DNA from: an uncultured Roseicyclus sp.
GTDB taxonomy: Bacteria > Pseudomonadota > Alphaproteobacteria > Rhodobacterales > Rhodobacteraceae
NCBI GenBank assembly: GCA_947500415.1
Contig: CANMRT010000001.1
Location: forward strand, 210,982-274,981
Direction of reading: 5' to 3'
DNA: 64,000 nt
Shown: positions 4,308-27,526 of the stretch, one piece after another
Numbering within the stretch: position 1 is the first letter of the stretch
How the letters are laid out: every line of letters begins with the position of its first letter
Made by a program: the position numbers and the translations under genes
Notes under the pieces: generated by a model
Seen by the model: the letters and a program-made list of their open reading frames with translations, nothing else
What the model was told of the DNA's origin: nothing
Databases searched by the model: none

Positions 4308-4940
4308 ATGACACGGACCTACGCATTGGCCTCGGTCGCGCTGATCGGTACTTTGATGGCGGGCACGGGCGTTGCGATTTACATGGCGCAGGCGGGCAGC
4401 GACGACCAGTTCGCCCAATGCCGCCCGGGCGTCGTCGCAGGCGGCGCAGGCTCGGTCGGTGGGCCTTTCACATTGGTCTCTGAAACCGGTGAAACGGTCA
4501 CAGACGCGGATGTGATCACCGAACCCACTCTGATGTATTTCGGCTATACCTTCTGTCCTGATGTTTGCCCGCTCGACACAGTGCGCAACGCAGAAGCGGT
4601 CGATATCCTGGAGGGACAGGGGATCAGCGTTCTGCCGACCTTTGTGACCGTTGACCCGAACCGGGATACGCCGGACATCGTCGCGGCCTTCACTGACAAT
4701 ATTCACGAGCGGATGCTGGGATTGACCGGCACGCCGGAGCAGACGGATGCCGCAGCGGACGCTTATCGTGTGTACTACCAAAGCCATGATGACGGGACCG
4801 ATCCCTACTACCTGGTGGATCACACGGCCTTCACTTATCTGATGCTGCCCGAGGTTGGCTTTGTGGAATTTTTTCCCCGCGAAACCTCACCCTCTGACAT
4901 GGCCGCGCGCACGGCGTGCTTTGTTAACGCGGCAAGCTGA
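4308..4940 (+). CDS. senC: SCO1/SenC copper chaperone
   Basis: YFGYTFCPDVCP (CxxxC), VDPNRDT and VDHT motifs; divergent from regB. Confidence 0.93.
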   Translation: MTRTYALASVALIGTLMAGTGVAIYMAQAGSDDQFAQCRPGVVAGGAGSVGGPFTLVSETGETVTDADVITEPTLMYFGYTFCPDVCPLDTVRNAEAVDILEGQGISVLPTFVTVDPNRDTPDIVAAFTDNIHERMLGLTGTPEQTDAAADAYRVYYQSHDDGTDPYYLVDHTAFTYLMLPEVGFVEFFPRETSPSDMAARTACFVNAAS

Positions 4941-4976
4941 GGTCTGACGGCAGCGCGAACCTTCGCAGTATCACGG

Positions 4977-24655: not shown

Positions 24656-25897
24656 TCACGCGCGGGTCAGGGCGGCCATGTAGAAGCCGTCGAGCCCGCC
24701 ACGGTCGGGCCAATGCGAGGGGAAGAGGCGCAGGCCGCCCTCTGGGCTGGCCCATTCCGCATCGCCGCCAAGGCTTGTTGGATCGGTGGGCACGACGCGC
24801 AGGTTTTCGTGGCGTTTCAGGGCGGCGGTAATCTGATGTTCGCCTTCGACAGGCAGGAGCGAACAGGTGCAATAAACCAGTGTCCCGCCGGGGTTCAGCA
24901 GGCTCAGCGCATGGTCGAGAAGTTGCATTTGCAGTTTGGTCAGCGGCTCAACCTCGCGCCCGTTTTTGACGAAGGGCAGGTCGGGGTGGCGGCGGATGGT
25001 GCCCGTGGCGGTGCAGGGCGCATCCAGCAGGATCGCGTCATATTTTACTTTGTGATCAAAGGCATCTTCGGTCACGAGCTTGGCGCTCAGGCCGGTTCGC
25101 GCGAGGTTCTCTGCAACGCGAGCCATGCGATGTTCGGACATGTCGAGGGCGGTGACATCGGCCCCGGCGGCGGCCAGTTGCATTGTCTTGCCACCCGGTG
25201 CGCAGCAGAGGTCGAGGACGGATTTCCCTTTGATATCAGGCAAAAGGCGCACGGGCAGGGCGGCGGCGGCATCCTGCACCCAAAACGCGCCCTCGTCGTA
25301 GCCGGCCAGGGCCGTAACCTGCGCGTGGCTGTGCAGGCGGAGCGAGCCGGTAGGCAGAACCTCGGCGCCTTCAATCGTGAAATCCGGGGACTTTGGTGTC
25401 AGGTCCAGCGGCGGAGCTTTAGCGTGGGCTTTTTGAATGGCCAGCAAGCCGTCCGCGCCAATGCGTTTGCGCAAGGCCTTGTCGACCCAAGGCGGTACGC
25501 GTTGGGGTGGGGCGCTGGCCAAAGCCTCAGGCCCATCGTCAATGACCTTGCGCAAAACGGCGTTCACCATGCCCGAGGCCTTGGCTGTCTTGGGGTGCTT
25601 TTTCGCAATAGAAACAAGCTCATGCGTGACGCCATGGGCATCTTCGCCGTTCCCCAAAAGCTCTGCCACACCAAGGCGCAGGATGTTCTGCACGGCCAGT
25701 TGCGGTTTGCGCATGGCATAGGGTTCCAGCACCGCATCAATCGCCCCGATCTGGCGCAGAACGTCGGTGGCAAGACGGCTGGCGCGCGCGGCCTCGGCCC
25801 CGCTGGCGGGGATGGTCACATGGGACAGCATTCGCTTTTCCCGCAGGACGGCATCGAGGAGGGTCAGCGCGATTTGACGGGCCAGCATGGGCGGCAC
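24656..25897 (-). CDS. RsmB/NOP family m5C RNA methyltransferase
   Basis: NusB-like N-terminus, VQDAAA, DLCCAPGGKT, LLDAPCTATG, YCTCS. Confidence 0.92.
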   Translation of the reverse strand: MPPMLARQIALTLLDAVLREKRMLSHVTIPASGAEAARASRLATDVLRQIGAIDAVLEPYAMRKPQLAVQNILRLGVAELLGNGEDAHGVTHELVSIAKKHPKTAKASGMVNAVLRKVIDDGPEALASAPPQRVPPWVDKALRKRIGADGLLAIQKAHAKAPPLDLTPKSPDFTIEGAEVLPTGSLRLHSHAQVTALAGYDEGAFWVQDAAAALPVRLLPDIKGKSVLDLCCAPGGKTMQLAAAGADVTALDMSEHRMARVAENLARTGLSAKLVTEDAFDHKVKYDAILLDAPCTATGTIRRHPDLPFVKNGREVEPLTKLQMQLLDHALSLLNPGGTLVYCTCSLLPVEGEHQITAALKRHENLRVVPTDPTSLGGDAEWASPEGGLRLFPSHWPDRGGLDGFYMAALTRA

Positions 25898-25964
25898 TTC
25901 CTTGTCTCAGATCAGGGGCCGCGTATATCAGGGGGAAGCCAAGTGACAAGCGGAGCCTGTGCAA

Positions 25965-26138
25965 ATGACCGATGCAAAAGACCTGACGCCCGAAGCGAAA
26001 CGCGCATTGGCCGAGGCAGAAGAGCGCCGGAAAAAGGCGAAAGAGCTGGAGTTGCCGACCGAATTGGGTGGGCGCGACGGGCCGGAGCCGGTGCGCTATG
26101 GCGATTGGGAGCGGAAGGGCATCGCGGTCGATTTCTGA
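25965..26138 (+). CDS. DUF1674 / SDHAF4-like small protein (57 aa)
   Basis: Below the ORF-track cutoff. Translation MTDAKDLTPEAKRALAEAEERR...ELGGRDGPEPVRYGDWERKGIAVDF contains the EP.RYGDWE.KG signature. Confidence 0.88.
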   Translation: MTDAKDLTPEAKRALAEAEERRKKAKELELPTELGGRDGPEPVRYGDWERKGIAVDF

Positions 26139-26146
26139 TCCGCAAA

Positions 26147-26288
26147 ATGCGTTCAAGTGAACGGTTATGCGTTCAGTTGAGCAGATATTTCACGAAAACT
26201 GCGTTCATCTGAGCAGACTTTCGGTGAGTTTTCGACCGCTTCGAAAACCCGTTCAGATGATCACATCTCTGCTCATGTGAACAGATAT
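26147..26288. repeat. Array of five GYTCA-NN-TGARC palindromes around an 8-bp inverted repeat
   Basis: Copies at 26151, 26171, 26203, 26251 and 26271; hairpin GTTTTCGA/TCGAAAAC at 26228-26248. Confidence 0.85.
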
Positions 26289-26296
26289 TGTGCCCG

Positions 26297-26656
26297 TTAG
26301 CGGATCCGAAAATCCGCGATGTCGCCGGTGCCCTGATCCGCGTGAAACCGGATTGCGCCGGGTTCGGCGGAGACGACCTGACAATTCCGGCCGAACTGCC
26401 GATCCCCGGCATCCAGCGTGCGGCAGAACATGCCGCCCTCCCAACTCCAGGTGCCGGTCACGTCGCGGCCAAGGGCGCGGCCGGAAATCGAACCATCGGG
26501 GCTGACCAGAAGCGAGACTCCCAGACGGGTGAGTTCGCGACCCTGCACATAGGACAGGAAAGTGCCGCGATCTGAAACGCGGGTGAGGTCAGCGAGGGCC
26601 GGTGCCGCAAGGCACAGCATAGCGAGTGCTGCGGTGAATAGGGTCTTGAAGGTCAT
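26297..26656 (-). CDS. Exported hypothetical protein downstream of dapB
   Basis: Signal peptide (AAPALA), beta-rich, with WSWEGG..CR and Cys pair; GGAGG RBS. Confidence 0.75.
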   Translation of the reverse strand: MTFKTLFTAALAMLCLAAPALADLTRVSDRGTFLSYVQGRELTRLGVSLLVSPDGSISGRALGRDVTGTWSWEGGMFCRTLDAGDRQFGRNCQVVSAEPGAIRFHADQGTGDIADFRIR

Positions 26657-26719
26657 GAATTCGTCCTCCGCGCGCTGAATTGGATGCTCGGGAGGTAGGG
26701 CGCAGTGCGCCGGGATCAA

Positions 26720-27526
26720 TTAAAGCCCCAGCACATCCATCATATCGAACTGGCCCGGACCTTTGCCTTGGCCCCAAAGGGCGGCCTTCAAAGCGCCGCG
26801 CGCGAAGATGGCGCGGTCGGTGGCGAGGTGGCGCAGAACGATACGCTCGCCGTCGGCGGCGAAGATCACGTCATGCTCGCCCACAACATCGCCGCCGCGG
26901 ATGGCGGTGAAGCCGATGTCACCGCGATTGCGCGCACCGGTGATGCCGTCCCGGCCCCGGTCGGAGACATCCGCCAGCGACACGTTGCGCCCTTCTGCGG
27001 CGGCCTCCCCCAGCATCAAAGCGGTGCCTGAGGGCGCATCAACCTTGTGGCGGTGATGCGCCTCGACGATCTCGATATCGAAATCCTCATCCAATGCGGC
27101 GGCGACCTGTTGGGTGAGTTTCACCAGCAGGTTCACCCCAAGGCTCATGTTTCCGGCACGGATGATGGTGGCATGGCGGGCGCAGGGTTCGAGTGCGGCG
27201 ATATCCTCATCGCTCATACCCGTGGTGCCGATGACATGGACGCAGCGGGCCTGAGCTGTCAGCTTCGCATGGGCCAATGTGGCGGCGGGCAAGGTGAAAT
27301 CGATGACCGCCTGCGCCTTGACGATGGCATCGAGCGGATCGCCGTAGACGGTCACGCCGGTGGTCGCACCGCCCATCGCTTCGCCCAGATCGCGGCCCAC
27401 CCAATCGTGGCCGGCGCGTTCCGTGACAGCGATCAGATGCGCCTTGTCGGAGGCGTTGATGATTTCGATCAGCATCTGACCCATGCGGCCCGACGCGCCC
27501 ATGATGGCGATTGCGGTGCTGTCCAT
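26720..27526 (-). CDS. dapB: 4-hydroxy-tetrahydrodipicolinate reductase
   Basis: [37 protein letters not shown]. Confidence 0.97.

Follow-up and report, generated by a model that had tools for sequence, protein, structure and literature searches.

Palindrome arrays dispersed at gene ends in Roseicyclus and their likeness to REP/BIME elements

The described system standing closest to the palindrome array treated here is that of the REP/BIME elements of E. coli and other gamma-proteobacteria (REPIN-RAYT), with which the array shares four traits: short imperfect palindromes exist in tens of extragenic copies, defined linkers join them into mosaic arrays, these favour the ends of genes and convergent gaps and are rare in divergent ones, and the sequence classes are lineage-specific and vertically inherited at orthologous positions. 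RAYT transposases are the only class of enzyme known to maintain repeats of this kind. REP classes turn over, such that related strains differ in them (PMC3686654), and vertical inheritance is described for REPINs (bioRxiv 10.1101/2024.10.14.618302).

The present array is situated in a stretch of 64,000 nucleotides (hereafter the window, i.e., the whole stretch that was analysed) belonging to a genome of 4.0 Mb of the genus Roseicyclus (G000). An initial annotation of the window had interpreted the tract as a candidate chromosomal protein-loading site. On balance, and with modest confidence, we regard it instead as a single copy of a mosaic palindrome element, lineage-specific and dispersed, whose mode of working resembles that of the enterobacterial REP/BIME.

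The tract in the window and its copies in the genome

All five palindromes (boxes) of the initial annotation were recovered, four of them as exact matches to GYTCANNTGARC and the fifth, GTTCAGATGATC at 26251, with a single mismatch to it. Equally confirmed were the box spacings of 20/32/48/20 (box starts 26151, 26171, 26203, 26251, and 26271), the shared flanks (TGC on the left, AGA on the right), the 8-bp inverted repeat with its perfect arms, and the higher AT-content of the tract, its GC-content being 0.47 vs. 0.60-0.69 in the surroundings. The four exact matches are the only ones in the 64-kb window and all lie within 26151-26282, whereas shuffled sequence leads to an expectation of 0.20 per window and none of 100 shuffles reached four. 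Each box is in fact the inner part of a larger palindrome of 18-20 bp, TGCGTTCA-NN-TGAACGCA, which the initial annotation overlooked, as it did the dispersed-repeat nature of the tract. The features of the interval are as follows:

25959..26138, plus strand: DUF1674 gene (PF07896, E 2.8e-16), stop codon at 26136-26138
26144..26289, no strand assigned: five-box, head-to-head variant of the family A palindrome array, made up of a forward core module and a partial inverted module
26148..26165, no strand assigned: box 1, TGCGTTCAAGTGAACGGT, preceded by an A-run at 26144-26147
26168..26185, no strand assigned: box 2, TGCGTTCAGTTGAGCAGA, with the asymmetric right arm GAGCAG
26186..26199, no strand assigned: linker, TATTTCACGAAAAC, a degenerate version of the family A T-run-CG-A-run TTTTTnCGAAAA (consensus of aligned modules)
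26200..26217, no strand assigned: box 3, TGCGTTCATCTGAGCAGA
26228..26248, no strand assigned: perfect 8-bp inverted repeat GTTTTCGA/TCGAAAAC, arms at 26228-26235 and 26241-26248
26248..26265, no strand assigned: box 4, CCCGTTCAGATGATCACA, with one mismatch, corresponding to box 2 of the inverted half-module
26268..26285, no strand assigned: box 5, TCTGCTCATGTGAACAGA, 20 bp from box 4 and corresponding to box 1 of the inverted half-module
26297..26656, minus strand: ORF of 119 aa with a hydrophobic N-terminus and without a Pfam family, the convergent right neighbour, stop codon at 26297-26299
26720..27526, minus strand: dapB (dihydrodipicolinate reductase; PF05173 and PF01113), the next gene on, not bordering the array

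The array starts 5 nt after the stop codon of DUF1674 and fills the whole gap between the two convergent stop codons. The interval had been annotated as lying between DUF1674 and dapB; its convergent orientation and the left neighbour hold, but the right neighbour is not dapB, from which the array is separated by the 119-aa ORF. By comparison with the module consensus, the inverted repeat at 26228-26248 is read as the T-run/A-run linker, in expanded form, of the inverted half-module.

Concerning the rest of the genome, the 158-bp gap holding the tract matched 31 further places of G000 with 71-93% identity. Searches with BLAST, iterated nhmmer, and a covariance model gave 32, 111, and 79 matches, respectively, which, when merged, collapse to about 42 loci. 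Strict boxes number 108 across the genome vs. 12.7 expected, with 30 clusters of two to six boxes each. A genome-wide scan reveals no localised site but an even spread, with 8.8-11.2 loci per Mb on all four large contigs, and the tract belongs almost certainly to this dispersed family (family A).

Across 36 aligned core modules, the consensus box is a palindrome of about 20 bp, aTGCGTTCA-NN-TGAACGCAt, and the module (consensus nAAAATGCGTTCAnnTGAACGCATATGCGTTCAnnTGAnCGGATTTTTTnCGAAAAnTGCGTTCAnnTGAACGGATTTT) runs in the order A-run, box 1, 20 bp, box 2, T-run-CG-A-run, 32 bp, box 3, T-run, the spacings of the core module being always 20 and 32 bp. Variants carry extra boxes at +24+24 or +48(+20), or the module in tandem, and the 20/32/48/20 pattern of the window copy recurs at C1:1265613 of the same genome. 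The asymmetric right arm GAGCAG is present in about half of boxes 2 and 3, and GCGTCCA constitutes a minor box variant. Near-identical copies are absent from G000 (best identity 88%), which argues against recent transposition.

Two further classes of dispersed repeats were observed in G000. One is located in the window at about 37294 (C1:248275) and at about 29 other places of the genome, mostly in gaps after gene ends; it consists of a variable 16-bp palindrome (GTTGCAAGGTTGCAAC, n=15; TTATCACGCGTGATAA, n=10; TGTGCACGCGTGCACA, n=5) followed by ccggGGTTAAG, about 35 nt, and then TTTACC-N5-6-TTAACC. The other class, with about 10 copies (C1:324981, C1:774196, C2:53636, C3:207673, and others, outside the window; also C1:1100367-1100563), exhibits three direct CTGTAGT repeats at a spacing of about 11 bp and then the palindrome ACTACA-NN-TGTAGT, and it occupies one G000 slot in which the related genome G006 has a family A array.

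Gene context, distribution, and inherited slots

Genes were called with a codon-usage model made for this analysis, covering 87-91% of each contig. Among the 42 family A loci, 18 are situated in convergent, 21 in co-directional, and 2 in divergent gaps, and 1 is apparently intragenic; the background of G000 comprises 459 convergent, 2036 co-directional, and 584 divergent gaps, such that convergent gaps are enriched (18/42, p about 1e-5) and divergent gaps depleted (2/42, p about 0.008). In co-directional gaps the array adjoins the upstream stop codon, and the core modules are opposed to gene direction in 15 of the 19 co-directional cases (p 0.02). Family A boxes are confined to arrays: isolated operator-like boxes were not found in promoters, and relaxed matches are mostly intragenic and chance-like.

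Relatives were searched with a covariance model of the module (R1), the genus being represented by 19 genomes, one per species. Family A was detected in four of these (G000, G006, G015, and G016); 22 genomes from other genera were without a match. A pattern scan over 185,579 species returned the arrangement box1-N8-box2 from Roseicyclus records only. G016 yielded just 6 matches to the covariance model, and its sister G013 none. The flanks of one copy in G016 (L117, C1:367361-367642) share 85-93% identity with G000, a value that seems high given the distance in the tree and suggests that this copy came with its flanking DNA by recombination.

The gap in which the window copy lies can be followed through the genus, as DUF1674 and dapB are kept in all 19 genomes, homologues of the 119-aa ORF are found in 15 of the 18 congeners, and the synteny of the three is kept across most of the genus. 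The orthologous gap contains family A in G000 and G006 and a degenerate family A in G015. A triple palindrome of different sequence (family B, CCTCCCG-NN-CGGGAGG) is situated there in G001, and palindromes with variable complementary arms around CTTGCAAG (family C) are found in seven species. In seven congeners the gap measures 9-36 bp and possesses no array. The family A array of the window site is absent or replaced in 16 of the 18 congeners, the replaced sites holding palindrome arrays unrelated to it. Family B is a dispersed repeat confined to G001, and family C is likewise dispersed but essentially confined to a separate species group; where G003 has family C copies, the corresponding sites of G000 are empty.

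The family C arrays (L024 and L110-L116 of G003; relatives in G005, G008, G017, G018, G009, and G007) are built from 3-4 palindromes in which the centre, CTTGCAAG, is constant and the outer arms vary from box to box but stay complementary (AGAGC/GCTCT, ACGCC/GGCGT, AAAACT/AGTTTT), a pattern that is the reverse of that of family A. Elsewhere in the window, at about 4940-4970 (G000 C1:215921-215951), a short gap was noted whose orthologous site in G015 has a degenerate family A copy (L119). When the joined flanks of three further loci were used as query, slot occupancy was found to vary across the genus, and no cleaner insertion boundaries were obtained.

These observations bear directly on the reading of the tract as a one-off loading site for partition or recombination, parS-like and peculiar to this place in the genome. 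Its palindromes are clustered, and the CG-centred boxes share the 10-bp core TTCACGTGAA with parS; the box centre, however, is free, the genome has two perfect canonical parS sites elsewhere, and about 42 equivalent loci are spread evenly over all contigs. As the tract is a short dispersed repeat and most congeners lack its motif in the orthologous interval, a unique loading site is refuted, and a parS-like function peculiar to this locus is hardly credible. The two parS sites (TGTTTCACGTGAAACA) lie outside the window at G000 C4:317851 and C4:319759, inside two neighbouring genes on the minus strand (211 and 624 aa) whose position resembles that of gidB/gidA, and probably mark the origin region.

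The 40 family A copies of G006 were compared with the sites of G000. Thirty-three of them occupy orthologous sites, all 33 in the same orientation (chance about 1e-10). Nevertheless, at least two boxes differ in type at 18 of these 33 sites, and at about a dozen the arms are fully switched, G000 having GCGTTCA-NN-TGAACGC and G006 GTGACCA-NN-TGGTCAC; intermediate arms, e.g., GTCCA..TGGAC, are also seen. At these loci the arms of orthologues are just as similar (identity 0.71) as those of paralogues. Outside the arms, an orthologous signal persists that is weak but significant (0.588, permutation p below 2e-4). G001, the carrier of family B, is the sister of G006 in a tree built from one 3.3-kb locus, and its family B copies occupy family A slots of G000 in the same orientation; in three-way alignments the boxes correspond one-for-one across families and species. 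The palindrome arms are uniform within each genome and differ among sister species (GCGTTCA, GTGACCA, CCTCCCG).

Within the boxes, the positions G1, C4, A5, T8, G9, and C12 changed in 0-9 of 99 orthologous box comparisons, whereas the NN centres differ in about half of them and the outer GCG/CGC vary between orthologues, such that the constrained bases read G..CA..TG..C. Alignments of orthologous boxes thereby show that six symmetric bases per box are strongly constrained. Two-sided changes at the pair (3,10) exceed expectation (29 vs. 18, p 1e-5), with Watson-Crick symmetry always kept, and over the 99 orthologous box pairs one-sided changes are about as common as two-sided ones. The initial annotation had taken the fixed arms and the free 2-bp centre as a sign of protein recognition; this can be upheld at the level of the family, though not for a one-off site. 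That particular bases are constrained and that the arms change in concert suggests a sequence-specific factor that would recognise or copy the arms.

One way to account for this pattern widens the idea of the initial annotation to the whole family: the arrays might be DNA-level platforms for a dimeric, sequence-specific host protein (nucleoid-associated, topology- or termination-coupled), bound to some 130 boxes in some 45 slots at gene ends, with the hairpins and terminator features being incidental. The near-invariance of the six symmetric positions across species, with diverging centres and flanks, fits such a protein, as do half-sites that often evolve independently (e.g., GTTCA..TGGTC), the conserved asymmetric GAGCAG arm, which weakens the hairpin, the shift of arms in the same direction at many loci, and the retention of orthologous copies in situ. 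The spacings of families A (20/32) and B (20/43) moreover differ by 11 bp, i.e., about one helical turn, so that the boxes stay in phase; the extra boxes at 24-bp and 48-bp spacing, however, are out of phase. No candidate protein was found, and there are no single boxes in promoter regions as would be the case for the operator of an autoregulated factor. Sister species with wholly different arms in the same slots would require the protein and more than 100 sites to co-evolve wholesale, and in most congeners the sites are missing altogether. We consider host-protein platforms rather unlikely.

The patchy distribution, the degenerate copies in G015, the existence of empty orthologous sites, and three presence/absence differences between G000 and G006 are what might be expected of a decaying, non-autonomous, MITE-like element without a cellular role, whose insertions away from gene ends were purged by selection. 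But terminal inverted repeats distinct from the boxes were not found, and at the three presence/absence sites (including L093 and L094), the flanks of which have diverged, no target-site duplication is visible. Neither a related transposase nor a full-length or autonomous element with the same ends was detected, and family A gave no match to plasmid and phage collections. Furthermore, in copies that have stayed in place at orthologous loci, the constraint on the six box positions greatly exceeds that on the bases next to them, which is unexpected for dead copies. A MITE-like origin of this kind is improbable.

Returning to the BIME-like element, a more far-reaching version of it is less likely than not: at about 45 inherited gene-end slots of a Roseicyclus clade, the arms of the triple palindromes may have been rewritten in concert in each lineage, without RAYT, with their position, orientation, and spacing preserved along with some of the linker. 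If true, this would constitute an undescribed system, i.e., either a dimeric sequence-specific protein co-evolving with more than 100 chromosomal sites or, alternatively, a templated mechanism overwriting palindrome arms in place. Should such a protein or copying mechanism exist, families A, A-type 2, and B would provide matched site sets for finding it. Family A is in any case a clean natural experiment on the persistence of short palindromic repeats.

Hairpins and a possible role at gene ends

Terminator-like sites accompany 18 of 56 gene ends beside family A (32%) vs. 228 of 1926 elsewhere (12%; p 7e-5), and with a laxer U-run criterion 40 of 56 (71%) vs. 483 of 1926 (25%). RNA folding gave z-scores of -2.8 and -3.3, stable folds being predicted on both strands; in the fold of the plus strand, box 1 pairs with box 2 in one 12-bp stem. 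The layout of A-run, hairpin, and T-run is repeated in families B and C with unrelated sequences.

Based on these features, the BIME-like element might act as follows. On the transcript, boxes 1 and 2 together, and box 3 alone, would form hairpins flanked by A-runs and U-runs, and the array would terminate transcription in both directions, with weak to moderate strength, or serve as a structure protecting the 3' ends of both convergent genes, which would explain why it is tolerated at gene ends only. A putative sequence-specific factor other than RAYT would recognise or recopy the arms, which would account for their being uniform and changing in concert. For this combination, a terminator or 3'-hairpin role together with a putative recognising factor, we hold the arguments to be evenly balanced.

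Several findings weigh against it. The window copy has degenerate U-runs and received no call in the terminator scan, and many of the hairpins that one box would form by itself have little stability (-0.7 to -3 kcal/mol in the GAGCAG variant). Under a three-hairpin model, covariation within the genome was not above shuffles, and G-U and C-A mismatches exhibited no bias towards the preferred transcription direction. The seven congeners with a gap of 9-36 bp demonstrate that the array is not needed at this site, and the absence of near-identical copies speaks against recent transposition. Neither a recognising protein nor a copying enzyme was found, Y1/RAYT being absent from all carrier genomes.

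A single long hairpin of box 1 with box 2 was tried separately and rejected: the NN centres of the two boxes are complementary in about 3 of 36 modules vs. 2.25 expected, and no selection for such a hairpin is evident.

The stable predicted folds on both strands could also suggest a family of small-RNA genes with promoters of their own. Yet a promoter-like site was not found in the window copy, a search of 25500-27000 against Rfam 15 with E up to 10 returned sub-threshold chance matches only (best 20.8 bits vs. a cut-off of 50), and the arrays adjoin stop codons and fill the entire intergenic gap. Small-RNA genes are accordingly a very improbable explanation. In annotating Roseicyclus genomes, the arrays are best masked as repeats and treated as likely terminator or 3'-end elements.

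Comparison with known systems

Like bidirectional intrinsic (Rho-independent) terminators, the family A consensus combines a predicted hairpin with an upstream A-run and a downstream T-run, and the arrays are situated between convergent genes or after a stop codon. Ordinary terminators, however, are unique sequences, whereas family A represents one sequence at about 42 loci; its U-runs are short (4-6 nt), many of its stems are weak, and the window copy has no terminator call. Miniature intergenic repeats acting as terminators or RNA stabilisers are represented by the Correia elements of Neisseria, paired DNA uptake sequences, ERIC, and the SMAG of Stenotrophomonas. They are, like family A, species-restricted, about 100-150 bp long, hairpin-forming, and often situated at gene 3' ends. 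In contrast to these, family A exhibits no detectable terminal inverted repeats or target duplications and has a distinct triple-box architecture, and its about 130 boxes are far fewer than uptake sequences.

With the sites of parS/ParB, matS/MatP, SlmA, and Noc, family A shares palindromic structure and independence of promoters. The shared core of the CG-centred boxes with parS has been mentioned above; the type-2 boxes (GTGACCA, as opposed to GCGTTCA in type 1) have the outer arms GTGAC...GTCAC in common with matS. Nevertheless, the half-site spacing differs, and family A is not limited to a macrodomain or an origin region. The parS site itself is a 16-bp sequence, TGTTNCACGTGAAACA, with a fixed CG centre, whereas the family A centre is NN and its outer arm GCG instead of TGT; parS is also present at few sites near the origin and kept among relatives, as opposed to 42 loci of a family that is absent from 15 of the 19 genus genomes.

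Other candidates were discarded. The spacing of the LexA box (GTTC-N7-GTTC in alpha-proteobacteria) and those of CtrA and DnaA boxes do not fit family A, and integron attC is ruled out, the family A copies being dispersed among core genes.

There remain the REP/BIME elements, with which the likeness is greatest, and from which family A differs in five respects. They possess a GTAG or CGTC head, whereas the family A consensus is aTGCGTTCA and CGTC occurs only in the minor variant GCGTCCA. A cognate RAYT gene (Y1 transposase, PF01797) would be expected, but PF01797 had no match in G000, G006, G015, or G016, while control genomes gave matches. In family A each unit is complete in itself, a 9-2-9 palindrome whose 2-bp centre is free, the units are arranged in triplet modules with fixed 20/32 spacing and A-run/T-run flanks, and the arms are swapped between sister species at orthologous slots of conserved orientation. 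Because the GTAG head and the RAYT gene are both missing, family A is not filed under REP/BIME: it works like a BIME, but it is not a member of the REP/BIME family.
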